Shown here: one piece after another, positions 10,327-28,495 of the stretch
Position numbering within the stretch: position 1 is the first letter of the stretch
Layout: each line of letters opens with the position of its first letter
Source of the DNA: Planctomycetales bacterium
Lineage (GTDB): Bacteria; 4484-113; JAFGCY01
Direction: 5' to 3'
Assembly: GCA_022646745.1 (NCBI GenBank)
Contig: CP060262.1
Span: 3,180,001-3,212,000, forward strand
Length of the DNA stretch: 32,000 bases
Translations under genes and position numbers: made by a program
The notes under the pieces: generated by a model
Seen by the model: only the letters and a program-made list of their open reading frames with translations
Told to the model about the DNA's origin: nothing
Database searches by the model: none

Positions 10327-10348
10327 TACGCTCAACAGTACTGATAAA

Positions 10349-10477: not shown

Positions 10478-10534
10478 CTCCGCATCGGGCAGCCGGTCCC
10501 GTAGATCCGGCAATCAGCTTTACGGAGAATTGAC

Positions 10535-10972
10535 ATGAACGACAGCGGAGCGATGATGCAAAGCAGTGTCACGGAGAATGGAATGTACTTCCAGACCACC
10601 GTCAACACCGACTTCGACACAACTGTTGAGAACATCAGGGAAGCACTCCCCGGCGAGGGATTCGGCATCCTGACGGAGATTGACTTCTCCGGCAAGATGA
10701 AGGAGAAACTGGACGCAGACATCCCGCGCTGCCTGATCCTCGGCGCATGCAACCCGCCGTTTGGCCTTGAGGCTTACAAACTCGAGCCCTGGATCGGGAT
10801 TGAGCTGCCCTGCAACATCGTCGTCCGCCAGATGGAGGACGGCAAGGTTGAAGTGGCGATGAAGAACCCGGCCCTGCTGGTTGAGTTCACCGGCCAGGAG
10901 GAGATCCGTCCGATGAGCGAGGAAATCAAGGCCAAGGTGCGTCGCATCCTGAACTCGATTGCAAGTGCGTAA
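10535..10972 (+). CDS. DUF302 domain protein, cytoplasmic paralog (no signal peptide)
   Basis: By eye it is about 60% identical to the 9817-10326 product across the DUF302 core (FGILTEIDFSGKMKEKL...CLILGACNPPFG...PCNIVVRQ). An in-frame TAG at 10502-10504 rules out an N-terminal extension. GGAG lies upstream of the ATG. Confidence 0.85.
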   Translation: MNDSGAMMQSSVTENGMYFQTTVNTDFDTTVENIREALPGEGFGILTEIDFSGKMKEKLDADIPRCLILGACNPPFGLEAYKLEPWIGIELPCNIVVRQMEDGKVEVAMKNPALLVEFTGQEEIRPMSEEIKAKVRRILNSIASA

Positions 10973-10981
10973 CTGACGCCG

Positions 10982-11022
10982 AACGGCTGGTCAGTTTTCC
11001 TCGAGGCTGGCCAGCCGTTTTT
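10982..11022 (+). terminator. Intrinsic terminator for the DUF302 gene, overlapping the 3' end of the convergent small feo-linked gene
   Basis: A 13-bp stem pairs AACGGCTGGTCAG (10982-10994) with CTGGCCAGCCGTT (11007-11019), with one G-U pair. A T5 run follows on the plus strand. There is no U-tract on the minus strand. Confidence 0.5.
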
Positions 11023-11170
11023 CCATGATTTCCTGGCGTGAACAGGAACTGCAGCCACTTCCGCAACCCTTGCTGGGCCTTCCAATGACGAGCATGTGGC
11101 GGACCAGGAATGCCGCCGCGAGCAGCACCACGCAGATCGTCACAATCCACTGCAATGTAATGTTCATCAT
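10991..11170 (-). CDS. FeoB-associated Cys-rich small membrane protein
   Basis: The product MMNITLQWIVTICVVLLAAAFLVRHMLVIGRPSKGCGSGCSSCSRQ... has one N-terminal TM helix followed by a Gly/Ser/Cys cluster, as in the small FeoB-associated family. Its ATG overlaps the feoB stop (ATGA). The longer ORF-track version (to 11266) lies inside feoB. Confidence 0.7.
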   Translation of the reverse strand: MMNITLQWIVTICVVLLAAAFLVRHMLVIGRPSKGCGSGCSSCSRQEIMEKRLASLEEN

Positions 11171-13386
11171 GCCAGCCCCGGGAAGAACCTTATGCCAAGC
11201 TGGTAGAACACAAGGCAGGTGACGTAGGCGAGAGCGGTCATGTAGCCGACCATCACAAGCGGCCACTTCCAGCTGTTTGTCTCACGCTTGACGACCGCCA
11301 CCGTGCCCATGCACTGGCAGGCAAGGATGAAGAAGATGATTATGTTCAGTGCCACCAGCGGGCTGTAGACACGTTGCCCATCTGCATGCTTCTCATTGCG
11401 AATGGCATCCATCAGGCTGACACTGGTTTCGTCCGCTTCCCCGACGTTATAGACAATCGCCATCGTACTGACGAACACCTCCCGGGCTGCAAAACTGGCA
11501 AGCAGACCGATACCGATCTTCCAGTCAAAGCCAAGTGGTTCGATCACGGGTTCGATCACCTGTCCAAGCTTGCCCGCTATGCTCCCCCGCAGCATCTCAC
11601 CCGACTGCAGACTGTCCAGTTCCTCCAGTCGCAGTTCAAGCTCGTCCCCACTCAGGCTGGCCTGTGCTGCACCACGCTGGCTGTCGTACTTGGCCTGCAG
11701 GCTGTTGTCATGCGGGAAATATGCGATGAACCAGAGGATGATGTTGATTGCCAGGATAATCGTGCCGGCCTGGGTCACGAACATCCGTCCGCGCTCCCAG
11801 ACTGAGTTGAGAACTGTCTTCCAGCTGGGTACGCGATAAGGAGGCAGCTCAATGATGAATGGCTGCTGTCGCCCCTTCAGCACCGTCATCCTGAAAGCTC
11901 GTGCGACCAGCAGTGCGGCGCAGATGCTGAATATGTAGGCACCCAGCAGCACAAATCCCTGCGTGGTAAAGCCTGCGAACAATGGGGTGGCGGGGATCAA
12001 TGCCCCGATCATCAAGGCGTAGACTGGCAAACGTGCGCTGCAGCTTGTCAGCGGAACCGCCATGATGGTTGCCAGCCTTGTGCGCGGGTCACTGATGTTT
12101 CGCGTTGACATGATCGCCGGGATGGCACAGGCGAAGCCGCTGAGCATCGGGATGAAGGCGTGGCCCGTCAGGCCGAAGCGCCGCATGTGGCGATTCATTA
12201 CGAATGCAGCACGTGAAAGGTAACCGCTATCCTCCATAAGCACGATGAACAGGAAAAGCAGAATGATCTGCGGCAGGAAGATCAGCACGGCGCCGACACC
12301 ACTGATGATCCCGTCAGTCAGCAGGTCGCGCAGTGGTCCAGACGGCATTGAACTGGCAACAGCGCTGGCTGATGCCGCTGTCAGGCCATCGATCATGTCC
12401 ATGAAAGGGCCTGCCCAGGTGTATATGCTCTGGAAAACCACGGCCATGACAACAAGGAAGATTGCCAGTCCAAACACGGGATGTGTCAAGACGCGGTCTA
12501 CCTTGTCACTACGGCTGGGTTTGAACTTTTCTTCGCTCCGTACCCGTGTGGTCTCGATTACTGACTTGATCCAGGCATAGCGTCCGATGCTTTCCGACTC
12601 AACCCACTTCACACCAGCCCATTCCAGCTCGGCACGTAACTTGCCGACGAGCTCGCGGATACCGGGCAAGTCGATCATCCTGTTGGTCCCACGCCTGTCC
12701 AGCAGCAGTTCCACTGAGACCTGGCGCAGGATCCGGCGCTCCATCGGCTTGTGCTTGCCGATCTCCGCTGCCAGGTGCTCGATCGCATGCAGGACCTTCT
12801 CGCCAATGCTCCAGGGGAGGTCCTCACCTTCCCTGCCAACCGCCTGCAGGATGACCTTCTTCAGTTCGGTTATTCCCTTGTAGGTCGGGGCAACGGTTTC
12901 CACCACGGGACGGCCAAGATGCTGCTCCAGTACAACCGGATCCACCGGCTGCCCCATACTGGCAGCCTCATCGTTCATGGTCAGCGCGACCACGCCGGGC
13001 AGGCCGAGGTCCAGTACCTGTGTAGCAAAGTAGAGGTTGCGCTCCAGGTTCCCGGCATCAAGGCAGACGACCACCACATCAACAGGCTGCTCGCTTCCCA
13101 TCATGCCAAGCAGTACATCCCGGGTGATGCGCTCCACGTCGTTGGTCGGGCGCAGGCTGTAGGCACCGGGCAGGTCAATCACTTCTATCTGGAGGCCTTC
13201 AAAGCTGAAGATACCCGATTTGCGTTCAACGGTCACGCCCGGATAATTTGCTACTTTCTGCTTCAGTCCGGTTAGCGCATTGAACAGCGTTGTCTTTCCG
13301 GTATTGGGGTTGCCAACCAATGCAACGCGGATGGTGCGTGGCAATGTGCCCTTCTGTTGATCAGGGAGGTCCTGGCTGGTCAGCAT
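11167..13386 (-). CDS. feoB: Ferrous iron transporter FeoB (N-terminal G-domain plus polytopic membrane domain)
   Basis: The G1 motif is VALVGNPNTGKTTLFNALTG, followed by DLPG and a long C-terminal multi-TM region. At 739 aa it is typical for FeoB. Its start overlaps the feoA stop (ATGCTGA). Confidence 0.95.
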   Translation of the reverse strand: MLTSQDLPDQQKGTLPRTIRVALVGNPNTGKTTLFNALTGLKQKVANYPGVTVERKSGIFSFEGLQIEVIDLPGAYSLRPTNDVERITRDVLLGMMGSEQPVDVVVVCLDAGNLERNLYFATQVLDLGLPGVVALTMNDEAASMGQPVDPVVLEQHLGRPVVETVAPTYKGITELKKVILQAVGREGEDLPWSIGEKVLHAIEHLAAEIGKHKPMERRILRQVSVELLLDRRGTNRMIDLPGIRELVGKLRAELEWAGVKWVESESIGRYAWIKSVIETTRVRSEEKFKPSRSDKVDRVLTHPVFGLAIFLVVMAVVFQSIYTWAGPFMDMIDGLTAASASAVASSMPSGPLRDLLTDGIISGVGAVLIFLPQIILLFLFIVLMEDSGYLSRAAFVMNRHMRRFGLTGHAFIPMLSGFACAIPAIMSTRNISDPRTRLATIMAVPLTSCSARLPVYALMIGALIPATPLFAGFTTQGFVLLGAYIFSICAALLVARAFRMTVLKGRQQPFIIELPPYRVPSWKTVLNSVWERGRMFVTQAGTIILAINIILWFIAYFPHDNSLQAKYDSQRGAAQASLSGDELELRLEELDSLQSGEMLRGSIAGKLGQVIEPVIEPLGFDWKIGIGLLASFAAREVFVSTMAIVYNVGEADETSVSLMDAIRNEKHADGQRVYSPLVALNIIIFFILACQCMGTVAVVKRETNSWKWPLVMVGYMTALAYVTCLVFYQLGIRFFPGLA

Positions 13387-13622
13387 GTCTGATTCCCCGA
13401 GGCAGAGACCATGTAGTTGACCGATATTGCAGCTGCCAGCTCACGGTCCAAGGCAATGCGGCTTTCATTAACGTGCAGCAGCATCGGGTTGCTGCTCTTG
13501 ATGACCTTCAGGTCAACGCCTTCCAGCACCCCAAGTTCGCGCAGGCGCAGTGTGCCACTCACATGAGAATCAATCTCAGTAATCAGCACAATATCTCCAC
13601 TGCGGCATTCACTCAGTTTCAT
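13380..13622 (-). CDS. feoA: FeoA family protein (small SH3-like Fe2+ transport accessory protein)
   Basis: MKLSECRSGDIVLITEI...LRLRELGVLEGVDLKVIKSSNPMLLHVNESRIALDRELAAAISV matches the FeoA pattern. The ORF is open to 13664, but the predicted promoter at 13667-13695 would start transcription downstream of that ATG. I therefore prefer the internal ATG at 13622, which gives 80 aa. Confidence 0.85.
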   Translation of the reverse strand: MKLSECRSGDIVLITEIDSHVSGTLRLRELGVLEGVDLKVIKSSNPMLLHVNESRIALDRELAAAISVNYMVSASGNQTC

Positions 13623-13666
13623 CACGGATTCCACAACATGAAAGGATAGCGTGTCCAGCCGCATGA

Positions 13667-13947: not shown

Positions 13948-15483
13948 ATGAATTTAAGTATCGACAAGGATAGCCGGGAGCCCGTCTACGAACAGATCAG
14001 ACGGCAAGTCACTGAACTGGTCAATGACGGGTTGCTGGCTGCCGGCCAGAAGATTCCCAGTGTGCGTGACCTGGCCAAGCAGCTGGGTGTATCGGTCAAG
14101 ACGGTCTACAGCGCATATGAAGCGCTGGCCGCCGAGAAGATCATCGAAACCCGTCACGGCAGCGGTACTTACATTACTGAGCATCCTGATGTGGTGACCG
14201 GCGCCAACCTGCGCACCCGTGAGGAAATGGGCGGCAGGCTGGAAGAAATCCCGCCGATGCGCTGGGAGCCGTACTTCCTGCAGAGTGGATTCTTTGGAAT
14301 GCCACCCTACAGAGATAAGAGCCAGAAACTGATCAGGATGTCACTGGGTTCACCTGATCCTGGTTTGTTTCCCTTTGACAAGATCAAGCAGGTGGCAACC
14401 ACCATGCTCTGGTATCCGAAGGAATACTTCTTCGACAGGGGAAATCCACAAGGATTTCATCCACTGATTGAGTATCTTGAAAAGGAAATGGCCCTGGAAG
14501 GTGTTCCGATGGCCGAAGGTGAGAATGACATCATTCTTACCGGCGGTTTCCAGCGTGCGTTGACACTTGTCCTCGACAGGATCCTCAAGCCGGGACAGAT
14601 GGTGGCAATCGAGTCGCCAACCTTTAGCGGAATAATGAACTTGCTGATGTCCAGAGAGATCGGATACGTGTCCATTCCAATGGATAAGAATGGCATGGAT
14701 ACCGATTACCTTGCTGGTGTACTCAATCAGGGAGAAGTTCGGGCGATAATCACGATTCCCACGTATCACAACCCGACTGGCATCACAATGTCCAAGGCTC
14801 GCCGCGAGCATCTGCTGAGACTGGCGGCCCGTCATCGGATTCCAATCATTGAGGATGACTGGGGACGTCAGCTTCGTTATGAAGGGAAAGCAACGCCCCC
14901 GCTTAAAGCAATGGATACCGGTGGTTATGTCATACACATAGGAACATTCAGTAAATGTTTCCTGCCGGGTCTGAGAATAGGATGGATAACCTGCCCTGCC
15001 CCTCTCAGTGTGTCCATGGTTCTTACCAAGCACGGAAGTGATGCAGGTGACAGTTTCTTCAATCAAGCGCTGTTACACGAGATTATCCTCAAGGGCCATT
15101 TCAGCAGGCACCTGAGAAAGACAATCCGGGAATATAAGCGCAGACGTGATGCGATGTGCGCCGCATTGTCAAAGAATCTCCCTGAAGGATGTTCTTTCCA
15201 TAAGCCATCGGGTGGATTCTATGTTTGGGTTGAATTGCCAAACAACATCAAATCACTACCCTTGCTTACATTCGCCAGGAATGCAGGAGTGGAATTCCTG
15301 CCATCTAGTTACTGTATGCCAGATAGAAAGGACGGACCTGCCTTAAGACTTTCCTTCAGTAGGACATCAGTTGAAGAAATAGAGGAAGGCGTGGGGACCC
15401 TCTGCCGGGTAATCCAGGATTGCATTGACAATCCGGATATGCTCAGCAGTGGGGCGCATTCCTATGAGGACCTGTACAAATGA
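13948..15483 (+). CDS. MocR-family transcriptional regulator (GntR-type wHTH fused to a fold-type I aminotransferase-like PLP domain)
   Basis: The N-terminal PVYEQIRRQVTELVNDGLLAAGQKIPSVRDLAKQLGVSVKTVYSAYEALAAEKIIETRHGSGTYI is a GntR HTH. The C-terminal ~400 aa show aminotransferase class I/II features, including the PLP-lysine context GTFSKCFLPGLRIGW. Confidence 0.9.
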   Translation: MNLSIDKDSREPVYEQIRRQVTELVNDGLLAAGQKIPSVRDLAKQLGVSVKTVYSAYEALAAEKIIETRHGSGTYITEHPDVVTGANLRTREEMGGRLEEIPPMRWEPYFLQSGFFGMPPYRDKSQKLIRMSLGSPDPGLFPFDKIKQVATTMLWYPKEYFFDRGNPQGFHPLIEYLEKEMALEGVPMAEGENDIILTGGFQRALTLVLDRILKPGQMVAIESPTFSGIMNLLMSREIGYVSIPMDKNGMDTDYLAGVLNQGEVRAIITIPTYHNPTGITMSKARREHLLRLAARHRIPIIEDDWGRQLRYEGKATPPLKAMDTGGYVIHIGTFSKCFLPGLRIGWITCPAPLSVSMVLTKHGSDAGDSFFNQALLHEIILKGHFSRHLRKTIREYKRRRDAMCAALSKNLPEGCSFHKPSGGFYVWVELPNNIKSLPLLTFARNAGVEFLPSSYCMPDRKDGPALRLSFSRTSVEEIEEGVGTLCRVIQDCIDNPDMLSSGAHSYEDLYK

Positions 15484-17501
15484 GGCTGAAATCAATCATT
15501 ACAATCGTGGGAGTGCTGCTGGCTCTGGCAGCCTGCCGGGGTTCCGGGCCTGGTCTGTCAGCTCCGGATATCCGCGTAAGTTCCCTGTATGGCTCTGACC
15601 TCAGCGGGCTGCAGGTTGAGGTCAGCGACAGGACGATCAAGCTGTCAACTGACAGGATTGACAGTAAGGGCTTGTTCCTGCTGCTGGGGTCTGGCAGCTA
15701 CCACCACTTCAACCTGGTGAATCGAAACGAGAATGACAACCTGCTGTATGTCCAGGGCGAAGGCAGGTCTGGATTTGAAATCGGCATTGTGCCAATAGAT
15801 ACAGAATCATCCACAAGGTTCGTGGCAAGCTTTGAGCTATCTGAAACACCTGAGCTGCGCAGCACCAGCCTGTTTGAGGATCCCTACAGGGTTGATGAGA
15901 TCATTGTCGTCCCCTCCCCGCTTGACAATTATGTATCGCTCAACTGGGTCGAGAAGAACATTGGCGATTATGACTTCAACGGAGAGGTCAATTCCGCGGA
16001 TCTAGTGCCGATCGTGACGAATCTCGGCGAAAGCGGATTCAGGAATAGCACAGCTGCCAACACGACAAAGCTCTTCTACATTGACGGCGATGAAAACAAT
16101 GAAATCAACCTGGCTGACATCGTTCCGATCGCCAGGAACTTTGGCAATTCAATTTCGGGTTACTACATCCACAAGAACGGGGAACCTGTATTGGATCCTC
16201 TGAGTGGGGAACCAGCCTTTTATGGAAGACCTGGCCCTATTGATGCTGAACCGAAGGATTGGATCATCAATGACGCGCCAGTCTTCTTCCAGGTCAGCGT
16301 AGAGGGAAGCTTTGAAGACCAGTACAGCCTGGTACCGGTTGACAGTGAAGGCGATGTGCAGTCTCAGTCCGTCGTCTTTGACGGCGTGGAACTGCAGTCG
16401 TATATGACACCACATGAGGCATTGCAGGGCCAGGGGATCAGCCTGTTTGATCTTTCCGGCGGCGGAAGGACTGTCCCTGATTACAGTGAAATGCTTGGCA
16501 GCTACTTCTGTGTAATGCGCATAATCTGGCCTGATGATACCGTGGATGGGATAGATGAACCGCCGGACATGCTTGATCCGCTCTATTGGAACTCTGTGCC
16601 CCAGAGCTTTGATGAAGGCACGCGTGAACCAGGTGAGGGATATCGCTTTGACAAACTGAAACGACCCAGCCCTGACTCCACTGCTTCAACGCCCTACATC
16701 CTGGAGATCCTGTTCGCTCCCACCGTTGACCTGTTGACCGGTGAACAGCGCAGCTATGGTGGAAGCAAGGTGCCGAACAGCTTCTACTACCGCCTGGCCG
16801 TGCCTGTCTACATCCCGCATGGCCACCGCACGGTGTTCGCGGACTTCACCCTGGACCTGGTACCTGAGAAGGAAGGACCCGGCTATGACATCATGCTGTA
16901 CAACCACCAGTACCAGACAGGCGATGAGTTTGACAACAGTGTGATCCGGATTGAACTCGAGCAGGACGGCATCAATGGCGGACTGGACTCCTGGGTCAGC
17001 CGTGTCCATGATCCCGTGCCGGACTTCCGCTATCTGACCGGTGACTTTACCTACAGTCCGCGATTCCACGACAGCAATGGCGACGGCCTGAGCGACCAGC
17101 TGCAGCGCCGTCTGATCACTCAGGCTGACGCTCAGTATTACAACCTTGACCCATTCCCGATCATCCTGTCTGCTGAGCCGCAGAAGTATGATCCACTGTT
17201 GGGCAGTCTTGACCTGTTCGATGTCCGCAAGGTGCTCTCCGGTGGACAGGAAGTCTTCTATGCCGCTTCACGGACTGTCCAGCTCTGCGAGACCACCCGC
17301 TTCAACTGGGTGATCCGCGACGAGAATGGTGAGCATCCCGTACAGGTCAGTCCGGAACTGCTCAATGGTCTTGGCAACAATGCTGAGATCCTGATGGATG
17401 TCTCCGTTCAGGAGGGCCAGAACCTCGGTGTGTACGGACTTCCATCCTTTATCTGGGTCGATGAACAGACCATCACCCTTGACCTGATCAACGCCAATTA
17501 A
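15480..17501 (+). CDS. Lipoprotein with a dockerin-like Ca-binding module and an otherwise unrecognised ~450-aa C-terminal region
   Basis: The lipobox is VLLALAA-C19. The dockerin-like pair GDYDFNGEVNSADLVPIVTNLG...DGDENNEINLADIVPIARNFGNS spans aa 155-224. There is no CxxCH motif. Its ATG overlaps the MocR stop (ATGA). Confidence 0.8.
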   Translation: MRLKSIITIVGVLLALAACRGSGPGLSAPDIRVSSLYGSDLSGLQVEVSDRTIKLSTDRIDSKGLFLLLGSGSYHHFNLVNRNENDNLLYVQGEGRSGFEIGIVPIDTESSTRFVASFELSETPELRSTSLFEDPYRVDEIIVVPSPLDNYVSLNWVEKNIGDYDFNGEVNSADLVPIVTNLGESGFRNSTAANTTKLFYIDGDENNEINLADIVPIARNFGNSISGYYIHKNGEPVLDPLSGEPAFYGRPGPIDAEPKDWIINDAPVFFQVSVEGSFEDQYSLVPVDSEGDVQSQSVVFDGVELQSYMTPHEALQGQGISLFDLSGGGRTVPDYSEMLGSYFCVMRIIWPDDTVDGIDEPPDMLDPLYWNSVPQSFDEGTREPGEGYRFDKLKRPSPDSTASTPYILEILFAPTVDLLTGEQRSYGGSKVPNSFYYRLAVPVYIPHGHRTVFADFTLDLVPEKEGPGYDIMLYNHQYQTGDEFDNSVIRIELEQDGINGGLDSWVSRVHDPVPDFRYLTGDFTYSPRFHDSNGDGLSDQLQRRLITQADAQYYNLDPFPIILSAEPQKYDPLLGSLDLFDVRKVLSGGQEVFYAASRTVQLCETTRFNWVIRDENGEHPVQVSPELLNGLGNNAEILMDVSVQEGQNLGVYGLPSFIWVDEQTITLDLINAN

Positions 17502-17519
17502 CTCTTTCAACCAACCGTG

Positions 17520-17558
17520 ACAGGGACACCGCTATTGCCGGTGTCCCTGTTTTTTTTT
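17520..17558 (+). terminator. Strong intrinsic terminator after the MocR-lipoprotein unit
   Basis: A perfect 12-bp stem pairs ACAGGGACACCG (17520-17531) with CGGTGTCCCTGT (17539-17550) around a 7-nt loop. A T9 run follows immediately. Confidence 0.85.
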
Positions 17559-17613
17559 GCTGGCAGTTGATAGAATCCTCCCATCATCTACACGGGGCCG
17601 TGGGGAGTCTGGG

Positions 17614-18594
17614 ATGAAACTAACGACAGTTGGCGGGGCGCTGGCAGTCACAGCACTGGCCTTTGTCCTGCTGCTGCCCGGCGCATTGTTCAGCCAGGAA
17701 GAGGAAGACCAGCAGCCCCTGCTGGAATGGCACGGTGAAAGCCCCCACTGGGAACCCGGACAGGAGTTCAGTGCAGTCAAGGGTTCCACCTGGATCGGCA
17801 GCCGGGAGTGCCTCTACTGCCACGAGGAACTCAAGATGGACTTCCTCGCCACGGCCCATGCCCGATCCCTGCACAAGGCCGAGATCAGCCTGGACCGCCA
17901 GGGTTGCGAGGCCTGCCATGGTGCAGGTGGCGGACACCAGATGCTGCGCAGCCGGGGTGCGATCTTCGCCTTTGACTGGGAAGACTCCTCGCACGAGAAC
18001 AACATCTGCCTGCGCTGCCATGAATGGCTGACTACCAACCGTGAGTGGGAGCGCACAAGCCACGCCCGCGCTTCCCTGCGCTGCAGTGATTGTCACGACC
18101 CGCACCAGAGCCATGACAGCGGGATGCGCCACCTGCTGCTGGCAGATGTCAACGAACTGTGCATCAGCTGCCACCAGGTAACTGCTGACGATTTCCGTAA
18201 CTTCAGCCACCATCCAGTGCAGGTGGACAGCGCTAACGAGCCGGACGGTGGTGTGATGAACTGTACGGACTGCCACGAGGTACACGCCGGCCATGGTCCG
18301 GCAATGCTCGCTGAGCGCAAGGTGCGAAACCTCTGCCTGACCTGCCACATGGACAAGGGCGGCCCGTTCAAGTTCGCCCATATGTCCGTCGATGACGCAC
18401 TTGGCGATAGTTGCCTCAACTGCCACAGCTCACATGGCAGCAGCAACCCGGGACTGACCCTGATGGATGGGCGGTCGCTTTGCCTGCAGTGCCATACCGA
18501 CCGCAGCGAGCACAATGCACCGACCACCTGCTGGACGACAGGCTGCCACCATGCAATGCACGGCAGCAACAATGATCCCTTCCTGAGGTTCTGA
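17614..18594 (+). CDS. Periplasmic multiheme c-type cytochrome (10 heme-binding motifs), MtrA/DmsE/MtoA/PioA-like
   Basis: The signal peptide is MKLTTVGGALAVTALAFVLLLPGALFS. Nine CxxCH motifs are present: CLYCH, CEACH, CLRCH, CSDCH, CISCH, CTDCH, CLTCH, CLNCH and CLQCH. One CxxxxCH (CWTTGCH) is also present, along with many spare His residues and a C-terminal CHHAMHGSN. A GGGGAG SD precedes the ATG at 17614. The ORF-track start at 17557 falls in the terminator T-tract. Confidence 0.85.
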   Translation: MKLTTVGGALAVTALAFVLLLPGALFSQEEEDQQPLLEWHGESPHWEPGQEFSAVKGSTWIGSRECLYCHEELKMDFLATAHARSLHKAEISLDRQGCEACHGAGGGHQMLRSRGAIFAFDWEDSSHENNICLRCHEWLTTNREWERTSHARASLRCSDCHDPHQSHDSGMRHLLLADVNELCISCHQVTADDFRNFSHHPVQVDSANEPDGGVMNCTDCHEVHAGHGPAMLAERKVRNLCLTCHMDKGGPFKFAHMSVDDALGDSCLNCHSSHGSSNPGLTLMDGRSLCLQCHTDRSEHNAPTTCWTTGCHHAMHGSNNDPFLRF

Positions 18595-18597
18595 GCC

Positions 18598-20382
18598 ATG
18601 AATGCAAGCAAGAGATTGTCAGTCGGACTGTTCTGCATCCTGCTCCTCAGCGCGGACGTTGCCCATGCCGGCAAGGTGGAGATCTACGTTGACGGTTATC
18701 CGCGAGTGTTTGATATTCCCGAAGACCTGGAAATGTACGAGCTGGAACCCGTCCTGATCCTCGAGGACAACCGCGCACTGCTGCAGGAATACTGCATCCA
18801 ATGCCCGCAGTCCGCAGTGCTGGGAGCCGGAAACCAAAGCTGGGACCGTGCGCTTGACGACCAGGGCCAGTATCTCGGCGAGCGGGATATCCAGCCCTAT
18901 CTGCGCGACATCCGCTACAGGGATTACCTGAGCAGTGAGGAATGGAATGGGGTCTGGGGAGACATCAACTATCCCGGCCGGATGCGACTTGACCTGGACC
19001 ACAGCGGTCCGCTGTGGAGCTTCGATGGTAGTTTCATGCGCTATGCAGGAAATACAATCGGACCCGATGGCAGGAAAGAAGAAGAAGTTTTACTGCTCGG
19101 TCAGAAGGAGCGGACGCAGTTCGACTTCGTCCTGCGTAGCGGTGGCATGGATGGTGGCAACCAGTTCCTGAAGGGCCAGTACTACAAGGTCAATGTGGAT
19201 GAAATGCCCTTCCAGCCGGTTGATGTCGAGCACCTGCGTATCGGGGCTGGATTCCGCATGGTGGAATGCCCGGGAATGCTCACGGCGGAAGTCTACAGCG
19301 GATTTTACAAGTCTGACCGCCAGGCAATGGACAACACATACAGTGGTGCCAAGGCGGATGGATACCTTTACATCGATGATGACCTTACGTTTGCTGCTTC
19401 AGGCAATACGACGGACATTGACATGTCCCTGCAGAATGGCAATGCTACTCGCAGCGACAGTGAAGCCGAACTTGAGTATCAGTTCAGTGATGAATGGAGC
19501 CTGAGTGCCGGCGTCAATGGCTATCGTGACAACAGCGACATCAGTGGGGTCAGCGACGCACGTAACTACACGGAGCGGATTGCCAGCCTGGATTACCACC
19601 CTTCCGGCCGGACCAGCGTCAATCTGAGCCTCTCCAGGCGAGAGGTTGACTACCAACGACTGCAATGGGAAAACAGTGAACTTTATAAACTTAACCTGAG
19701 GGACCCTGAACTGGATCGCGCTGAATTGGCTGCATTCCGGGTTTCAGAGGAAGCCGACTATGACAGCCTCCGTCTGCGCAGCAATTTCAGGCTGGATTCG
19801 TGCAGCAGGCTAAGTGCGGACTTTCGCCGTGATGATTATGGAAGCCTGCCTGAAGTCGGTGATTACGAAACACGTGCACTCCAACCGTCCTATTTTGCCA
19901 ACCAGCGCCAATGGGGCAGCGTCTTCTATCAGCGCAGTTTCAGTAATGGTGGTGAGTTGCAACTCACCGCTGCCGAGCATAGCCGTGATAACGATGTGAG
20001 GGACAGTAACTACTGTTCCCGGCGTTATTCAATCAGCTACGGGGACCTGATTGGCTGCAACTCACGCTGGCGCGCAAGCATCGGCCGTAGTGAAGTGGAC
20101 CTTGATGGCGCTGGGATTGACGTCATCTGGGATTCACAGTCCACGGACTACGGTCTTGACTTCAGCGGTTGCGGAAACTGGACGGCATACCGCCTCAGCC
20201 TGGCTCACCACGTGCGTGAGGGCAGCGCCAGCGGCGACTACAACTCACTCGGTCTGGAACTTGACCTGAATGACTCCCCGCTAGTAGTGAACAGCTGGTG
20301 GCGCCAGCAGGATGCGGGGCTGAGCCCCCTGTCCTATTCAGACGATATCGGGCTGTCACTCGGATGGAACATCCGCTTCTGA
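18598..20382 (+). CDS. Predicted outer-membrane beta-barrel protein, candidate MtrB/PioB/MtoB-like porin partner of the cytochrome
   Basis: The gene starts 3 nt after the cytochrome stop. The signal peptide is ...LLLSADVAHA-GK. There are no hydrophobic helices. The sequence is rich in D/S/G/Y/R, with alternating-polarity stretches (TAYRLSLAH, SLGLELDL, IGLSLGWNIRF) and a C-terminal Phe beta-signal. An N-terminal CxxC (C66-IQ-C69) is present, as reported for MtrB. Confidence 0.7.
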   Translation: MNASKRLSVGLFCILLLSADVAHAGKVEIYVDGYPRVFDIPEDLEMYELEPVLILEDNRALLQEYCIQCPQSAVLGAGNQSWDRALDDQGQYLGERDIQPYLRDIRYRDYLSSEEWNGVWGDINYPGRMRLDLDHSGPLWSFDGSFMRYAGNTIGPDGRKEEEVLLLGQKERTQFDFVLRSGGMDGGNQFLKGQYYKVNVDEMPFQPVDVEHLRIGAGFRMVECPGMLTAEVYSGFYKSDRQAMDNTYSGAKADGYLYIDDDLTFAASGNTTDIDMSLQNGNATRSDSEAELEYQFSDEWSLSAGVNGYRDNSDISGVSDARNYTERIASLDYHPSGRTSVNLSLSRREVDYQRLQWENSELYKLNLRDPELDRAELAAFRVSEEADYDSLRLRSNFRLDSCSRLSADFRRDDYGSLPEVGDYETRALQPSYFANQRQWGSVFYQRSFSNGGELQLTAAEHSRDNDVRDSNYCSRRYSISYGDLIGCNSRWRASIGRSEVDLDGAGIDVIWDSQSTDYGLDFSGCGNWTAYRLSLAHHVREGSASGDYNSLGLELDLNDSPLVVNSWWRQQDAGLSPLSYSDDIGLSLGWNIRF

Positions 20383-20424: not shown

Positions 20425-21105
20425 ATGAGCAAGATCGGAGTTGTGCTGTCCGGCTGTGGTGTATTCGACGGTAGTGAGATCCATGAGGCCGTTGCAGTAC
20501 TGTTGGCTCTGGCAAGGGCCGGTGTGAACTACCAATGCATGTCCCCGGACACAGAGCAGATGCATGTTGTCAATCACTTCACAGGAGAAGTCGCCGAAGG
20601 GCAGAAACGCAATGTGCTTGTGGAATCGGCCCGCATCGCACGAGGTGACATAAAGTCGATCTCTTCCGTGAACATCAATGACTATGATGGTCTGGTGTTC
20701 CCCGGGGGTTTTGGTGCAGCAAAGAACCTATGCAATTTTGCTGTTGCCGGTGCTGACTGTGATGTGAACTCCGATGTAGCCAGGCTGGTCCAGGCTGCCC
20801 ATGCAGCGGGGAAGCCGATGGCATTTGTTTGCATCAGCCCAGTCATTGCGGCCGCGTTGCTGGGTAATCGCGGAGTAAAGGTGACAATCGGGGATGATGA
20901 GGAAGCTGCCAGACAGATCAGCGAAATGGGTGGCCAGCACCTCAACTGCACTGTCAAGCAGATGGTGGTTGACAACGAAAACAAGATAATCACCTCGCCT
21001 GCATACATGAAGGCTGAGAACATTGCTGATCTGTTTGATGATGTGACGGCAAGTGTTAACGCGCTGATGGAAATGATCAACAACCAGGCTGCATCGAGTG
21101 CCTGA
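20425..21105 (+). CDS. elbB: ElbB-type DJ-1/PfpI family protein (isoprenoid biosynthesis glyoxalase ElbB)
   Basis: MSKIGVVLSGCGVFDGSEIHEAVAVLLAL...FPGGFGAAKNLCNFA...ITSPAYM aligns closely with E. coli ElbB as I recall it. A GGAGGA SD is present. Confidence 0.85.
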   Translation: MSKIGVVLSGCGVFDGSEIHEAVAVLLALARAGVNYQCMSPDTEQMHVVNHFTGEVAEGQKRNVLVESARIARGDIKSISSVNINDYDGLVFPGGFGAAKNLCNFAVAGADCDVNSDVARLVQAAHAAGKPMAFVCISPVIAAALLGNRGVKVTIGDDEEAARQISEMGGQHLNCTVKQMVVDNENKIITSPAYMKAENIADLFDDVTASVNALMEMINNQAASSA

Positions 21106-21120
21106 TCCACAATAGATGCC

Positions 21121-22602
21121 ATGAATCGACAACCTGACAACAGACTTCCGCCCGTAAATAGCTCTTTGTCCAGTCTTCCCTACTGGGAAAGCTGTGATGG
21201 TGGAACACTGGTAATCAGTTGTTCAGGAGGAATAGACAGCGTGGTACTCGCCCACGCCACGGTGGGGGTTATTGCAAGGCTGGACCGTCTCGGGAAATGG
21301 GAGAAATCCGCTCCTCAGGTACTCCTCTGGCACCTGAGACACGGAATCCGTGAGGAAGATGGAGCGGATGCCAGGTTTGTCGAGGAGCTGGCTCAACAGC
21401 TGGGGGTCAAGGCAATCATTGAAGAAGCTGACGTCCCAGCGGAAAGGCAGCCTGGCAAAGACAGCCTGGAATCAGCAGCGCGCCGGATCCGCTATTCAAT
21501 GTTGCTTGACTGCATGGAAAAGTATGAGAAGTGCATTGCCTTCACAGCACACCATGCCGATGACAACGCTGAGACCATCCTGTTCAACCTGGTCCGTGGG
21601 ACAGGGCCTGCCGGCCTGCGAGGGATCAGCCCGGTCTATGGCGGCAATATCCACCGTCCCCTGCTTTCTGTCAACCGTGAGCAGATCAAGGAATATGCCA
21701 AATCCAATAACCTTGAATGGATGGAGGACAGCAGTAACCTTGACACGGGTATTAGCCGCAACCTAATCCGGCATGAGGTCATTCCGAGGCTGGAGCAGAT
21801 CAATCCTGCGGCTGTGGAGCACATCAACCGACTTGCCAGAATGAGCCGGGAAGGACTTGGCAATCCAGTCAAACCCGTTTCCAGGCTGATTGCAAACAAG
21901 TCAATCTTCAGGGAGCTGCCGCTGATCAGCTATCCGGACCGGGCATGTGGCGTGGCAGGCATGGAACTGGATGGATTTGATCCGCTAACCAGCAACGAAG
22001 CCGTGGCAGCCCTGCTTGGCAGGATCGGGGCCCGGGTTGACAATGCATCGATTGAGGCCATCTGCTGCGGATTGCTGGGCGAACTTGAATTCCATGACAG
22101 TGGAGACAGGCACTTCAGTTTTCCAGGGTCTGGAGTTGTCTACTGGGAAAGCACGATAGCCAGCGACGAACGGCCTCAGATCATTCCGGAGTTGAGCCGT
22201 TTCAGGAAAGTCTACACAGACGAACAGCGCCGTGAACTGCTTGGCAACATGAACCTTGATGCACAGCGTTATCCGCGCTGGGAAAAGTGGATCAGGGGAT
22301 TGCTTGAGCCCCATATGTTACGTGCATGGAATGTGCTGTTGCCCCATTCCGGCAACACCCAGTACAAACTCCGTACGCGGAGGCAGGGTGATCGCATCCA
22401 GCTACCTGATGGCGGCACAAAGAAGCTGGGAGATGTGTTCACTGACTACAGAATCCCGGTATTCCTGCGGGACTGCTGGGCTGTAATGGTGGATGGAGAC
22501 GACCAGCCGGTCTGGTTGCCCGGGCTTGCGGACAGTGCAACGATGCATCGTACAAGCGACAGCAAACAGTACGAGTATATGGTGTTGAGCCCGCTAAAAT
22601 AG
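21121..22602 (+). CDS. tilS: tRNA(Ile)-lysidine synthetase
   Basis: It has the PP-loop SCSGGIDSVVLAH, HHADDNAETILFNLVRGTG, and a C-terminal TilS domain (GDRIQLPDGGTKKLGDVFTDYRIP). Confidence 0.9.
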   Translation: MNRQPDNRLPPVNSSLSSLPYWESCDGGTLVISCSGGIDSVVLAHATVGVIARLDRLGKWEKSAPQVLLWHLRHGIREEDGADARFVEELAQQLGVKAIIEEADVPAERQPGKDSLESAARRIRYSMLLDCMEKYEKCIAFTAHHADDNAETILFNLVRGTGPAGLRGISPVYGGNIHRPLLSVNREQIKEYAKSNNLEWMEDSSNLDTGISRNLIRHEVIPRLEQINPAAVEHINRLARMSREGLGNPVKPVSRLIANKSIFRELPLISYPDRACGVAGMELDGFDPLTSNEAVAALLGRIGARVDNASIEAICCGLLGELEFHDSGDRHFSFPGSGVVYWESTIASDERPQIIPELSRFRKVYTDEQRRELLGNMNLDAQRYPRWEKWIRGLLEPHMLRAWNVLLPHSGNTQYKLRTRRQGDRIQLPDGGTKKLGDVFTDYRIPVFLRDCWAVMVDGDDQPVWLPGLADSATMHRTSDSKQYEYMVLSPLK

Positions 22603-22606
22603 ATCC

Positions 22607-23992
22607 GTGCCGGCATACACGACCAGCGATACCATCGTCGCCCCAGCCACTGTGCCGGGACGCAGCGCCATCGCCATGCTGCGCCTCAGTGGGCCAAAGG
22701 CCTTTGACATGCTGCTGGATATCATGCCGGGCACCAACCAGGTTCCGCAGCATCGGCTGAACCTGCTGCAGGAAATCGAAATCAAAGCGCCGGCAGAAGC
22801 TGGGCTACCTAACCTTTGCGAGCAGGCGATGGTTTGTTGCCACCACGCCCCGCGCAGCTACACAGGTGACAACCTTGTTGAGATAAGCATGCATGGCAAT
22901 CCTTTGCTACTTGAGAGGGCAATCACATCCCTGGTACAGTCCGGAGCAAGGCTTGCCGAACCGGGAGAGTTCACATTCCGCGCCTACGTCAACGGCAAGC
23001 TGGACCTGATCCAGGCAGAAGCCGTGCATGAACTGATCAATGCCGGAAGCAGTTCTGCCTTGGCACTGGCCCAGACGGCTCTCGGAGGCCTGTCAGGAGC
23101 TCGTGTCAGTGTCTGGCAGGAACAGCTCCTCAACATTGTCACGCGAATAGAACTGATACATGACTATGCGTCTGACGACCTCGATGCCAGTGTGCAGGCG
23201 GAGGATGTCCTTACTCCAGCAGAACTGGCCCAGTCCTTGCAGAAAATGCTGGGTGAACTGGAATCAGCCCTGGAGGACAGCAGCCGCGGTGGCCTGATCC
23301 GGCACGGCCTGAGCCTCGCCATCGTTGGGGCACCGAACGTCGGCAAGAGCACACTGTTCAATGCACTGCTTGGATATGACCGAGCACTGGTGCACCATGC
23401 GCCGGGAACCACGCGAGACTATCTCAGCGAGTCAGTCGAATTTGGTGGACTGAGCTTTACACTTATCGACACGGCAGGCCAGCGCAGTGCCAGCGATGAC
23501 GTTGAAAGTGCCGGGGTGCAACTTGCCCAGGACTGGGCACGCAGTGCTGACATGGTTATATTCGTAAGTTCCGCTGATGAGAACGCAGTGGAACCTCTAC
23601 AAGCTGACAACCCAAGTGCAGGAAGGCAGGTACTCCATGTACATACCCGCTGTGACATCCTTGATGTCTGGCCAGAAGATGGCAACGGCGTGTTCCACGT
23701 GAGTGGTAAAACCGGCCAGGGCATCGAGCAGCTGCGATACCACATCGTCACTTTATGTGGACTTACTGAAGGCAGCGTGCTGGCAGCATTCAACCGCAGG
23801 CAGGCCGCACTGATAGATTCCTCAGTGCAGAACCTCAGGCTGGCATTGAAAGCGCTGGAAAACGGTATGCCAATGGACGCAGCCGCGCAGGATATCCACC
23901 TGTCCCGGGAATGCCTGCTCGATGTCAACCACAGCTCCAGCCGCCAGGACGTCATAGACCACATCTTCAGCAGCTTCTGCGTGGGCAAGTAA
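22607..23992 (+). CDS. mnmE: tRNA uridine-5-carboxymethylaminomethyl modification GTPase MnmE
   Basis: The N-terminal DTIVAPATVPGRSAIAMLRLSG, the G-domain (GAPNVGKSTLFNALLG, DTAG) and the C-terminal FCVGK (CxGK motif) are all present. The start is GTG. Confidence 0.93.
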   Translation: MPAYTTSDTIVAPATVPGRSAIAMLRLSGPKAFDMLLDIMPGTNQVPQHRLNLLQEIEIKAPAEAGLPNLCEQAMVCCHHAPRSYTGDNLVEISMHGNPLLLERAITSLVQSGARLAEPGEFTFRAYVNGKLDLIQAEAVHELINAGSSSALALAQTALGGLSGARVSVWQEQLLNIVTRIELIHDYASDDLDASVQAEDVLTPAELAQSLQKMLGELESALEDSSRGGLIRHGLSLAIVGAPNVGKSTLFNALLGYDRALVHHAPGTTRDYLSESVEFGGLSFTLIDTAGQRSASDDVESAGVQLAQDWARSADMVIFVSSADENAVEPLQADNPSAGRQVLHVHTRCDILDVWPEDGNGVFHVSGKTGQGIEQLRYHIVTLCGLTEGSVLAAFNRRQAALIDSSVQNLRLALKALENGMPMDAAAQDIHLSRECLLDVNHSSSRQDVIDHIFSSFCVGK

Positions 23993-25531: not shown

Positions 25532-28495
25532 CTAGACTTCCGTCGGTTTCTCGCCGTAATTCGCTTCGTACTGCTCCACCCAGTCCTCCGGCGGATTACC
25601 GTTGTCTTCCTTGATATGGCACTGCTTGTACTTCTTGCCGCTGCCGCAATAGCACTTCGAGTTGCGGCTGATCTTCGCTGCCGCCCTGCGCGTAGTCTCT
25701 ACCTTCACCCGTTCGGCCACTGCGGTGCCTCCGCCGCCAGTGCCCGGTTCGACGGGCTTACTCTCGCTGCGGATGTTGTAGGAACTACGAGCCTGCGGCT
25801 TCTGTTCCTCGACATTCAGCCTGACAAGGAAGATCTTGCGGATCACGTCCAGCTGGATCGTTTCCTTGAGGTTCTCGAACTCCGCAAAGGCTTCCTGGGC
25901 ATAGACCACGACAGGATCCTGCTGGCCATAGCCACGCAGTGAAACTCCACTGCGCAGTTCATCCAGCAGGCTCAGGTGGTCGATCCAGTGTTCATCGATA
26001 GCCTTCAGCGAGATGACACGCTCTATCTCCCGCATGCTGGCAGCACCGGTATCAAACGCCTTCTCTTCGATTTCCGCATCACTGACATCGGGATTCTGTC
26101 GGCGCAGGATGAATTCCCCGATCTCCTTCTGCTTGTCGTCGTAGCGCTTGACGACCATGTCAAACAGCAGGTCCTTGATTTCCTGCGTACTGCGGCCCTT
26201 GATGTGCTCAGGCTCCAGGTCATACAGCGGGAAGTTCTGCCTGGCATCCTGGTAGATGCCCGGTTCGTTGATCTCTATGTCACGGCCGTGTGCAGCACTG
26301 TTGTCATCCACAACGCGATCCACTGCGGCCTTGATGAATTCAAGGGTCTGGGCCCGCAGGTCGCCGCCGCTGAGAATGCGGTCACGCTCACCGTAGATCA
26401 CCTGGCGCTGCTTGTTCATCACATCGTCAAATTGCAGGATGTGCTTGCGGGTCTCGAAGTGGCGTCCTTCAACCTTCTTCTGTGCATTCTCGATGGACCG
26501 GGTCAGCATGCCGCTCTCGATCGGGACATCCTCCTCAATCTTCAGCATCTCCATCAGCTGTTCAACGCGCTCGCCACCGTACATCTTCATCAGGTCATCC
26601 TGCAGCGAGAGGAAGAAGCGCGATTCACCGGCATCACCCTGGCGACCACTGCGGCCGCGCAGCTGGTTGTCAATCCGTCGCGACTCGTGGCGCTCACTGC
26701 CGAGCACATACAGGCCACCGGCCTGCTTCACCTTCTCGGCTTCGGCCTCGAACTCCGGCTTGAGCTCCTTTACGATTGCGCGGAACTCATCGTCATGGTC
26801 ATCCGGGTTCTTGCCTTCCTTCAGCAAGCGCTCGCGGGCCACGAATTCCGGGTTGCCACCGAGCACGATATCGGTTCCACGACCTGCCATGTTGGTGGCG
26901 ATCGTCACAGCACCGAAGCGCCCGGCCTGGGCCACGATGAAGGCTTCCTGCTCGTGGTACTTCGCGTTCAGCACCTTGCAGGGCACGCCTGCCTTCGTCA
27001 GCATGCGTCCGAGGATCTCACTCTTGTCAATCGAGGTCGTTCCGACGAGGATCGGCTGGCCGATTTTGTTTCGTTCCTTCACTTCCTCAACGATCGCGTT
27101 GTACTTGGCCGGCACGTTCTTGTAAACGACATCCGGCTGGTCCTTACGGGAAATCGGCTTGTTCGTCGGTACCACGACGACATCCATGCCGTAAATCTTC
27201 TTGAACTCCTCTTCCTCGGTCTTGGCCGTACCTGTCATACCGGCCAGCTTGTTATACATGCGGAAGAAGTTCTGCACCGTAATGGTTGCCAGGGTCTGGG
27301 ATTCCGGTTTAACATCCAGTCCTTCCTTGGCCTCGATTGACTGGTGCAGGCCCTCGCCGAAGCGGCGGCCGTACATCAGGCGTCCGGTGAACTCGTCAAC
27401 GATCACGATCTGTCCATCCTTGACGATGTAATGGTCGTCGAGGTAGTACAGCGCGTGGGCGCGCATTGCCTGCTGCACGTAGTGCGCGAACTCAGTGTTC
27501 ACGTAGGCATACAGGTTCTTGCCAGCTTCCGGATCGTGCTCATCCTCCTGCAGCACGTCATCGAGCGCCTTCTCGACCTTGGCCAGTCCCTTCGGGGTCA
27601 GGGCAACGGTATGCTGCTTGCGGTCGTATTCAAAGTCCCAGGTCTTGTCCTTGTCCTTGTCGATCTTCTTGGCAAGCTGCTGTTCCCACAGGTCCTTCGG
27701 CTTGTCCTCGCCCGTGATCTCCTTGACCTCCAGGCTGCGGATCAGCTTGTCGACACGGCTGTACATGCTCGTGTCCTCATTGCTGGAACCGGAGATGATC
27801 AGCGGAGTACGGGCCTCGTCGATCAGGATAGAGTCGCACTCATCGACGATGCCGAAGTTCAGCGTGCCCTGCGTAATCTGCTCACGGTGCACCACCATGT
27901 TGTCACGCAGGTAATCGAAGCCGTATTCATTGTTCGTGCCGTACACGACATCGCATCCGTACACATCCTTGCGCGGCTGGCCACGCAGGTCATGCTGCAG
28001 CACGCCAACGGACACGCCGAGGTAACGGTAGATCGGTCCCATCCATTCCGCACCGTGGCGCGCAAGGTAGTCGTTGACGGTGATTAGGTGACTGCCCTCC
28101 CCTGTCAGTGCATTGAGCACCAGCGCAGGCACAGCGCCAAGGGTCTTTCCCTCACCGGTCTTCTGTTCGGCGATACGGCCCTCATGCAGCGCGATTGCGC
28201 CGATCATCTGCACGTCGTAGTTACGCAGGCCGAGCGTCCGGACTGCCGCCTCGCGGGTGATTGCAAACACTTCAGGCAGGTGCTTGCTGAGAATGGTCTC
28301 TACCTGCGTTGAAGTCGCGCCGTGCTTTTCCACTTCAGCACGGATTTCCTTGCGGATCGCCGCGATGCGTTCCTTGACGTCCGTTTCGGACATTTGCTGC
28401 ACACGGGGTTCGAGTTCGTTGATCTTGTCAGCGACCTTGCGCAGTCTTGCGAGGTCGCGCTTGTTTGAGTCAAACAGCTTAGTTAGAAAGTCCAT
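25532..28495 (-). CDS. secA: Preprotein translocase ATPase SecA
   Basis: The 987-aa product has canonical SecA motifs: MQTGEGKT-like QKTGEGKTL, DEVDSILIDEARTPLIISG-like DECDSILIDEARTPLIISG, TNMAGRGTDI and RGRSGRQGD. It also has the C-terminal zinc-binding tail CYCGSGKKYKQCH. A GGTGA SD is present. Confidence 0.97.
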   Translation of the reverse strand: MDFLTKLFDSNKRDLARLRKVADKINELEPRVQQMSETDVKERIAAIRKEIRAEVEKHGATSTQVETILSKHLPEVFAITREAAVRTLGLRNYDVQMIGAIALHEGRIAEQKTGEGKTLGAVPALVLNALTGEGSHLITVNDYLARHGAEWMGPIYRYLGVSVGVLQHDLRGQPRKDVYGCDVVYGTNNEYGFDYLRDNMVVHREQITQGTLNFGIVDECDSILIDEARTPLIISGSSNEDTSMYSRVDKLIRSLEVKEITGEDKPKDLWEQQLAKKIDKDKDKTWDFEYDRKQHTVALTPKGLAKVEKALDDVLQEDEHDPEAGKNLYAYVNTEFAHYVQQAMRAHALYYLDDHYIVKDGQIVIVDEFTGRLMYGRRFGEGLHQSIEAKEGLDVKPESQTLATITVQNFFRMYNKLAGMTGTAKTEEEEFKKIYGMDVVVVPTNKPISRKDQPDVVYKNVPAKYNAIVEEVKERNKIGQPILVGTTSIDKSEILGRMLTKAGVPCKVLNAKYHEQEAFIVAQAGRFGAVTIATNMAGRGTDIVLGGNPEFVARERLLKEGKNPDDHDDEFRAIVKELKPEFEAEAEKVKQAGGLYVLGSERHESRRIDNQLRGRSGRQGDAGESRFFLSLQDDLMKMYGGERVEQLMEMLKIEEDVPIESGMLTRSIENAQKKVEGRHFETRKHILQFDDVMNKQRQVIYGERDRILSGGDLRAQTLEFIKAAVDRVVDDNSAAHGRDIEINEPGIYQDARQNFPLYDLEPEHIKGRSTQEIKDLLFDMVVKRYDDKQKEIGEFILRRQNPDVSDAEIEEKAFDTGAASMREIERVISLKAIDEHWIDHLSLLDELRSGVSLRGYGQQDPVVVYAQEAFAEFENLKETIQLDVIRKIFLVRLNVEEQKPQARSSYNIRSESKPVEPGTGGGGTAVAERVKVETTRRAAAKISRNSKCYCGSGKKYKQCHIKEDNGNPPEDWVEQYEANYGEKPTEV

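Follow-up and report, generated by a model that had tools for sequence, protein, structure and literature searches.

A probable MtrAB/MtoAB-type decaheme cytochrome and outer-membrane barrel gene pair of compact proportions in a genome labelled Planctomycetales bacterium

The present analysis concerns a stretch of 32,000 nucleotides (hereafter the window) from a genome deposited as Planctomycetales bacterium (assembly GCA_022646745.1, contig CP060262.1, positions 3,180,001 to 3,212,000 of the forward strand), and in particular two adjoining genes for a decaheme c-type cytochrome and a predicted outer-membrane beta-barrel protein (Table 1). Quite probably, this gene pair specifies a porin-cytochrome conduit of the MtrAB/MtoAB type, with the decaheme sheathed by a barrel of 26 strands and wiring the periplasm to the cell surface. 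This reading is carried by the number of heme motifs, the homology of the cytochrome to MtrA, a predicted barrel fold with MtrB as its best match, the tight coupling of both genes and an adjacency that is conserved among relatives. An earlier note, made from the letters of the window, had already proposed an MtrAB/MtoAB/PioAB-like module of a divergent, uncharacterised lineage, a proposal that is now supported by the fold, the match to a decaheme family and the co-occurrence of both genes. The tight spacing and the upstream terminator that it had described were found as well: the cytochrome stop codon (TGA, 18592-18594) and the ATG of the barrel gene (18598) are 3 nt apart, a GAGG about 10 nt 5' of this ATG serves as ribosome-binding site inside the pair, and the terminator consists of a hairpin (17519-17551; stem of 13 bp with 8 G-C pairs, loop of 7 nt) that is followed by T9.

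The first gene encodes a Sec-exported protein of 326 amino acids (aa) with ten heme motifs, one of them atypical, just as the note had read it. Nine are CxxCH motifs (aa 66, 98, 132, 157, 183, 217, 241, 267 and 290), while the tenth site reads CWTTGCH (aa 306-312). Every one of the 20 Cys residues lies within a heme motif, and the 29 His residues suffice for bis-His ligation of the ten sites, which are packed into about 300 mature residues; the chain ends in ...GCHHAMHGSNNDPFLRF. As the gene is the sole CxxCH-bearing open reading frame (ORF) in all six frames of the window (ORFs of at least 80 aa), these motifs are not a chance pattern. Moreover, the model TIGR03508 for DmsE-family decahemes covers the protein end to end (model positions 1-257 of 258, E 2.6e-49, 168 bits), and its only sequence match in the PDB is 6r2q_A (E 1.2e-21, query 62-298 onto chain residues 63-286), which we take to be MtrA of the Shewanella baltica MtrCAB complex. 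A word-indexed search yielded 640 homologues, many of which are named 'DmsE family decaheme c-type cytochrome' by JGI. NF041028, the model for Geobacter GSU2203/OmcK, gives 158.6 bits, far under its cut-off of 325. The cytochrome is not of the NrfB type, in line with the note: the NrfB and NrfH models reach 38 and 29 bits as compared to 168 bits for the decaheme model, the NapC model is also far weaker, and neither nrfA nor another reductase gene lies near the pair, so that a role as NrfB- or NrfH-like partner was rejected.

The atypical CWTTGCH site is genuine and not an error. Cx4CH is a recognised heme-binding motif (PMC11492766), and CW[TA]xGCH occupies the heme-10 position in the best ~50 cytochrome matches, down to about 33 % identity, with CxxCH in the remaining matches. 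Of the 47 tips that descend from the common ancestor of the Cx4CH sequences in a neighbour-joining tree (114 sequences), 45 bear this motif, and the two tips without it look like secondary changes. The Cx4CH tenth-heme motif thus marks a coherent cytochrome clade, all partner proteins of which are short (533-625 aa) and unannotated. In MtrA, heme 10 is surface-exposed and contacts MtrC or soluble substrates (PMC7198977); since CWTTGCH stands at the corresponding position, the variant site would therefore lie at the business end of the wire. A second clade-specific feature of the cytochrome is the motif W-x-GESPHW-x-x-GQEFSAV (aa 39-55), located ahead of heme 1. It is invariant in the 14 sequences of at least 49 % identity, is not found in more distant DmsE-like cytochromes, and may serve as the surface on which a periplasmic partner or the rim of the barrel docks.

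In the 594-aa product of the second gene, the N-terminal signal peptide is the only hydrophobic segment and the C-terminus reads ...LSLGWNIRF; both features, as well as a CIQC motif in the N-terminal part, had been described before and are all present. No Pfam or NCBIfam family is matched by this protein at E ≤ 1. Its family is small, with 12 clusters only among 1.84 billion representative proteins searched exhaustively with HMMER, and a word-indexed protein search with the wider barrel alignment returned the same 5 proteins and nothing more. Structure prediction with AlphaFold2 from 5 close homologues alone was uninformative, with a predicted local distance difference test score (pLDDT) of 27, and was replaced by a model from a 16-sequence alignment (pLDDT 79.9, predicted template modelling score 0.67; four of the five models at 74-80). 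This model is all-beta and comprises 26 long antiparallel strands between residues 72 and 593 (28 when a low-confidence N-terminal hairpin is counted), of which strands 1-4 are short (7-13 residues); the loop that connects strands 1 and 2 contains a helical turn. On one face the turns measure 2-5 residues, on the other the loops measure 3-9 residues, bar two of about 22-25, and no plug, periplasmic jelly-roll or usher domain is present that would fill the lumen of a 26-strand barrel.

The architecture agrees with that of MtrB, which is described as a 26-strand barrel with strands 1-4 shorter than the rest and with a small helix, formed by the loop that joins strands 1 and 2, as a cap (PMC7198977). 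PioB and MtoB likewise model as 26-strand barrels (PMC10654088). In a Foldseek comparison with the PDB, the top match was indeed 6r2q_B (MtrB; E 1.1e-10, template modelling (TM) scores 0.60/0.56), whereas TonB-dependent transporters scored 0.36-0.49 and LptD 0.23-0.41. An identity as TonB-dependent transporter or LptD was rejected on account of these lower scores and of the missing plug and jelly-roll domains. Accordingly, the 594-aa protein is predicted to be a barrel of about 26 strands with MtrB as nearest solved structure, which agrees with the note's expectation of at least ~20 strands and of something other than an unrelated outer-membrane protein. The note had also remarked that the barrel is shorter than MtrB. 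This holds for the length (594 aa, about 570 of them mature, as compared to 649 residues in the MtrB chain of 6r2q) but not for the number of strands, since 26 are kept in the model and the difference is due to trimmed loops. The precursor of S. oneidensis MtrB measures about 697 aa.

The same note had likened the CIQC motif to the one reported as functionally required in Shewanella MtrB. An N-terminal CxxC is a signature of MtrB from metal-reducing gammaproteobacteria, and C42 is required in S. oneidensis (PMC12175506). However, CIQC is invariant only among the 5 closest members of the family, the window barrel and 4 other close homologues, and is missing from the remaining 11 of 16, two of which lack Cys altogether; it is hence not a family feature and does not by itself argue for MtrB-like function. 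With this distribution, CIQC cannot be taken as the counterpart of C42/C45, the motif that matters for function in Shewanella MtrB (PMC12175506).

Co-occurrence of both genes in related genomes, another expectation of the note, was seen at every related locus examined. Twelve clade loci, compiled from a genome scan with the cytochrome alignment and from contig look-ups, encode cytochromes with 51-92 % identity to that of the window, and in 12/12 of them a barrel homologue (27-75 % identity) is located directly 3' of the cytochrome gene. The closest relative, a metagenome-assembled genome labelled UBP7 (label as given), shares 92 % identity in the cytochrome and 72 % in the barrel. To judge from these identities, the barrel diverges much faster than the cytochrome, while the adjacency was never lost in the 12 clade loci. 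More distant Cx4CH-type cytochromes (33-41 % identity) likewise precede Pfam-less proteins of 533-617 aa, and these can be joined to the barrel family of the window stepwise: from the family profile to the partner in locus L005 (hhalign probability 98.3 %, E 2e-14), from L005 to L022 (E 6e-7) and from L022 to L006 (41 % identity). In L006 and L022 (~1-8800), the pair is clustered with a 719-914-aa fusion of cytochrome b (Ni_hydr_CYTB) and multiheme parts and with three more multiheme cytochromes, a cluster that looks like a complete, uncharacterised trans-envelope electron-transfer pathway. The DmsE-like cytochromes with canonical motifs that were examined pair with larger barrels of 654-859 aa, followed in two cases by Mto-like monoheme cytochrome and cytochrome-b genes. 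As a separate observation, locus L021 harbours two cytochrome and short-barrel pairs (6001-8576 and 10893-12978) about 2 kb apart.

These data also bear on a reading without any complex, in which the decaheme, in the manner of NrfB or STC, would be soluble in the periplasm and act as electron carrier or as partner of a reductase, and the 594-aa product of the second gene would be an unrelated large porin, exporter or transporter that happens to share the operon. The strict adjacency of cytochrome and barrel genes down to 27 % barrel identity is difficult to reconcile with it, as are the 26-strand model devoid of plug, jelly-roll or usher domains, a TM-score to MtrB clearly above that of any transporter, and the scores and missing reductase gene that speak against an NrfB-like partner. 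What it can draw on is the lack of sequence similarity of the barrel to any MtrB/PioB model, Foldseek E-values below 1e-7 also for TonB-dependent transporters and LptD, and a proposal, cited in PMC11492766, that MtrA also acts within the periplasm. Taken together, we consider this reading very improbable.

Several results nevertheless weigh against an assignment of the pair as MtrAB/MtoAB-type conduit. The profile check that the note had suggested succeeded for one of the two proteins only: the cytochrome aligns with TIGR03508 over its full length, yet its 168 bits stay below the curated cut-off of 192.2, which identifies it as a homologue throughout that lies outside the trusted boundary, and the barrel lacks any match to an MtrB/PioB model. 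The NCBIfam model in question is presumably TIGR03509, with PF11854 as its Pfam counterpart. None of the 16 members of the barrel family matches any MtrB/PioB hidden Markov model (HMM) at E ≤ 10, PF11854 included, and barrel profiles built from up to 16 sequences match no PDB sequence (E ≤ 10), not even MtrB. Likewise, hhalign gave no signal between the barrel profile and the 654-, 671-, 815- and 859-aa partners of canonical DmsE-like cytochromes. PDB searches with two such partner barrels returned chance matches only (E 0.04 or weaker), none of them MtrB-related. Sequence can thus tie neither the window barrel nor these partner barrels to MtrB. The 654-859-aa partners of canonical DmsE/Mto-like decahemes (L014, L016, L019 and L020) also miss the Pfam MtrB_PioB and NCBIfam MtrB models, which are therefore narrow, so that the HMM miss of the window barrel is uninformative; most of the diversity of this family seems to lie beyond the reach of current barrel HMMs. 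The evidence for the fold, in turn, comes from a single AlphaFold2 model on a shallow alignment, in which closure of the barrel is presumed, and a TM-score of 0.6 at 7.5 Å root-mean-square deviation to MtrB is only moderate. Finally, the 32 kb contain no gene for an inner-membrane quinol dehydrogenase, a periplasmic shuttle or a further cytochrome, so that the window by itself does not specify a complete pathway.

Among the known systems, MtrAB of the Shewanella MtrCAB complex (PDB 6R2Q) is the closest in several respects. It shares the periplasmic decaheme of about 330 aa that ends in ...CH...HGSN, the barrel gene directly downstream, and the predicted 26 strands, four short N-terminal ones included, with a small helix connecting strands 1 and 2. 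Among solved structures, MtrA and MtrB match the two window proteins best. In contrast to MtrCAB, the window system lacks an MtrC/OmcA surface decaheme. Its barrel differs from MtrB by its lower length, by predicted surface loops that are mostly short, by only ~10 % identity in the structural alignment and by the missing HMM match; the cytochrome differs from MtrA by Cx4CH instead of CxxCH at the tenth heme site and by its score under the TIGR03508 cut-off. The note had counted the absence of any MtrC/OmcA-type cytochrome as unusual. The absence itself was borne out, as no other CxxCH-bearing ORF exists in the six frames of the window and hence no MtrC/OmcA-like protein is encoded nearby, and no surface decaheme lipoprotein of this type was found in the syntenic loci L001-L003 either. 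However, it is normal for the MtoAB/PioAB branch, which usually lacks an MtrC-type partner (PMC5566968).

MtoAB of Sideroxydans and PioAB of Rhodopseudomonas also combine a decaheme with a 26-strand barrel and no surface cytochrome (PMC5566968, PMC10654088), and their cytochrome is presumed to be in direct contact with the substrate (PMC5566968, PMC10654088). MtoB and PioB, however, measure about 800 aa, as compared to which the window barrel is about 200 aa shorter. The Mto-like loci examined encode barrels of 815 and 859 aa that are followed, unlike in the window, by the monoheme cytochrome and cytochrome-b genes, and Mto-type cytochromes are only about 32 % identical to that of the window. 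No MtoD-, CymA- or PioC-type partner lies near the pair.

The Geobacter proteins OmcK (GSU2203) and GSU2204 (NF041028 and NF041027) resemble the pair in that a decaheme adjoins a protein of about 580 positions, and the GSU2204 family is listed among the MtrB/PioB-family barrels in a 2026 review (PMC13188914). NF041027 matches weakly to 2 of the 16 relatives of the window barrel (best E 6.6e-4) and to four partner barrels of other DmsE-like cytochromes. However, every score falls far short of the respective cut-off (325 and 350 bits), NF041027 is not matched by the barrel of the window itself, and proteins of the GSU2204 family bear CXXCH and sometimes selenocysteine, neither of which is found in the window barrel. 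The Geobacter Pcc/Ext systems (OmaB-OmbB-OmcB, ExtABCD and others) are similar in principle, with a periplasmic multiheme cytochrome and an outer-membrane porin-like protein. There, the periplasmic cytochrome is an octaheme, which is combined with a porin and with a lipoprotein cytochrome of the outer membrane (PMC4245776, PMC4282303), whereas the window lacks a third cytochrome, and none of the Pcc/Ext family models is matched by the window cytochrome or barrel. In Cyc2, one polypeptide unites a monoheme domain at the N-terminus with a barrel of ~16-17 strands, as opposed to two genes, ten hemes, ~26 strands and a heme-free barrel in the window. Membership in Cyc2 or Geobacter Pcc was rejected, as the architecture does not fit.

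If the pair is indeed an MtrAB/MtoAB-type conduit, both proteins would be exported by Sec and the 594-aa protein would fold in the outer membrane as a barrel of ~26 strands. The elongated decaheme would then be threaded through the lumen, its ten hemes forming an insulated wire between periplasm and surface, along which electrons could be exchanged between carriers in the periplasm and a redox partner outside the cell, for instance Fe/Mn minerals, chelated metals, humics, electrodes or other cells. Because the predicted surface loops are mostly short and no MtrC-like gene is nearby, the tenth heme with its clade-specific CWTTGCH site is expected to be exposed and may contact the substrate without an intermediary, a role that has been proposed for MtoA and PioA. 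The threading, an exposed heme 10 and any function in the cell are our inferences.

Table 1. Features of the window discussed in the text (positions in nucleotides from the first letter of the window).
Feature	Position	Strand	Remarks
Decaheme c-type cytochrome gene, MtrA/DmsE-like	17614..18594	+	326 aa; Sec signal peptide aa 1 to ~27
Variant tenth heme-binding site CWTTGCH (Cx4CH)	18529..18549	+	at position of MtrA heme 10
Outer-membrane beta-barrel gene, predicted cytochrome sheath	18598..20382	+	594 aa; signal peptide cut after ~AHA24
CIQC motif, N-terminal segment ahead of the barrel	18793..18804	+	aa 66-69; low pLDDT in model
Intrinsic terminator	17519..17560	+	ends upstream lipoprotein gene; isolates cytochrome-barrel pair from it
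elbB (DJ-1-family glyoxalase)	20425..21105	+	NF008747, 309.8 bits, above cut-off of 180; 42 nt past barrel gene
elbB-tilS-mnmE block	20425-23992	+	
secA	25532-28495	-	
Upstream lipoprotein gene	15480..17501	+	673 aa; two dockerin-like Ca-binding repeats, lipobox LALAAC; context, membership in module not shown
feoA	13380-13664	-	ferrous-iron uptake cluster ~4 kb upstream of cytochrome gene
feoB	11167-13386	-	ferrous-iron uptake cluster
Small Cys-rich FeoB-associated-like peptide	~10991-11266	-	feo cluster (10991-13664)
Two tandem DUF302 genes	9817-10972	+	adjoin feo cluster

Further information comes from the surroundings of the pair. In the stretch that separates the terminator from the cytochrome gene, a promoter scan revealed no convincing sigma-70 promoter, and an Rfam scan of 15-22 kb of the window revealed no RNA element. 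Downstream follow the housekeeping genes elbB, tilS and mnmE, with secA on the opposite strand. In eight of the 12 clade loci (L001, L003, L004, L007-L009 and L011 are named), elbB directly follows the barrel gene. This conserved neighbour has no known role in electron transfer and is possibly co-transcribed with the pair; as the stretch from the barrel gene to elbB showed no terminator, the conduit may share its transcript with housekeeping genes. Even where cytochrome identity is only ~51-56 %, relatives retain the order cytochrome-barrel-elbB-(ack/pta in L003)-tilS-mnmE, along with secA on the other strand, which argues for vertical inheritance rather than for a mobile respiratory island.

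The lipoprotein gene ahead of the terminator holds the position that mtrC has relative to mtrA, yet a strong terminator follows it. Its two dockerin-like repeats read DYDFNGEVNSADLVPIV and DGDENNEINLADIVPIA, and the 673-aa protein has neither a Pfam or NCBIfam match nor a heme motif. Only the closest relatives, namely L001, L008 and L009, have kept it (53-60 % identity). This lipoprotein is the obvious candidate in a DmsEF-like scenario, in which the conduit would not meet the substrate itself but pass electrons to an extracellular protein without heme that docks onto the barrel. DmsEFAB exemplifies that conduits of the MtrAB type can be at the service of surface enzymes without heme (PMC7198977), and the gene, with its lipobox, lies directly upstream of the pair on the same strand and is kept with it in the three closest relatives that have this flank. 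Such a partnership is very unlikely in our view, given the intervening terminator, the lack of any heme motif or recognisable redox or cofactor domain, and the relatives of 51-56 % identity (L002, L003 and L011-L013), in which the lipoprotein is not beside the pair and the pair persists without it.

Further upstream, a GntR/aminotransferase regulator and the divergent feoA-feoB cluster are kept only in the closest relatives; the arrangement of feo and DUF302 genes also occurs in L001 and is missing from L002 and L003. The iron-uptake genes suggest another scenario, in which the same conduit would serve assimilatory or housekeeping purposes, that is, the reduction of extracellular Fe(III) to Fe(II) for uptake by FeoAB or redox homeostasis of the envelope, instead of energy-conserving metal respiration or Fe(II) oxidation. 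We regard this as unlikely, albeit with some chance: feoA, feoB and the Cys-rich FeoB-associated peptide are found ~4 kb upstream on the opposite strand in both the window and L001, the pair is embedded in the conserved housekeeping block (elbB-tilS-mnmE, secA) across the clade and not in a respiratory island, and no respiratory partner is encoded near it. However, an opposite-strand proximity over 4 kb is weak evidence, and the feo neighbourhood is not kept in the more distant L002 and L003.

Two-gene MtrAB-like modules are well known and have been widely reported in genomes (PMC5566968, PMC8805035, PMC11492766), and the pair is therefore not a new kind of system; nor does it change the known mechanism of porin-cytochrome electron transfer. 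What appears to be new is the combination of a compact barrel family that current models do not detect, a cytochrome clade with a Cx4CH terminal heme site, and a scarcely studied, uncultured lineage. A literature search (with subscription journals outside its coverage) found no paper describing this variant. A farther-reaching proposal, which is tentative and in our estimate rather doubtful, is that the pair represents a clade-wide, undescribed 'minimal' class of Mtr-type systems, that is, a stand-alone two-protein surface oxidoreductase without surface cytochrome that combines a compact 26-strand barrel (533-625 aa) with a Trp-containing Cx4CH site (CWTxGCH) at heme 10 and is inherited vertically by the UBP7-like lineage inside a housekeeping block. 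If true, extracellular electron exchange would be a core, constitutive trait of a phylum without known physiology. The pair is also the first concrete physiological clue found for the UBP7-like lineage.

There are also practical consequences. Surveys of iron cycling or electroactivity that rely on MtrB/PioB HMMs would miss the window barrel. Since many partner barrels of DmsE-like cytochromes are likewise undetected by Pfam and NCBIfam models, such pipelines may under-count conduits in uncultured phyla. In addition, a naturally compact MtrB-type sheath that comes with a variant terminal heme site reveals what a 26-strand architecture can do without, and the window barrel could conceivably provide a smaller scaffold for engineered trans-membrane wires.

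Two further genes of the window, both on the minus strand, deserve mention. The first (2667-4739) encodes a 690-aa fusion of an N-terminal QmoC-like membrane region with a 4Fe-4S and two CCG (HdrD/DsrK/TfrB-like) domains, a possible membrane-bound, quinone-interacting oxidoreductase that is not adjacent to the cytochrome pair. The second (6832-9705) encodes a secreted protein of 957 aa with PQQ/BamB-like beta-propeller repeats and an fn3/GH-associated N-terminal region, which is conserved in L001.

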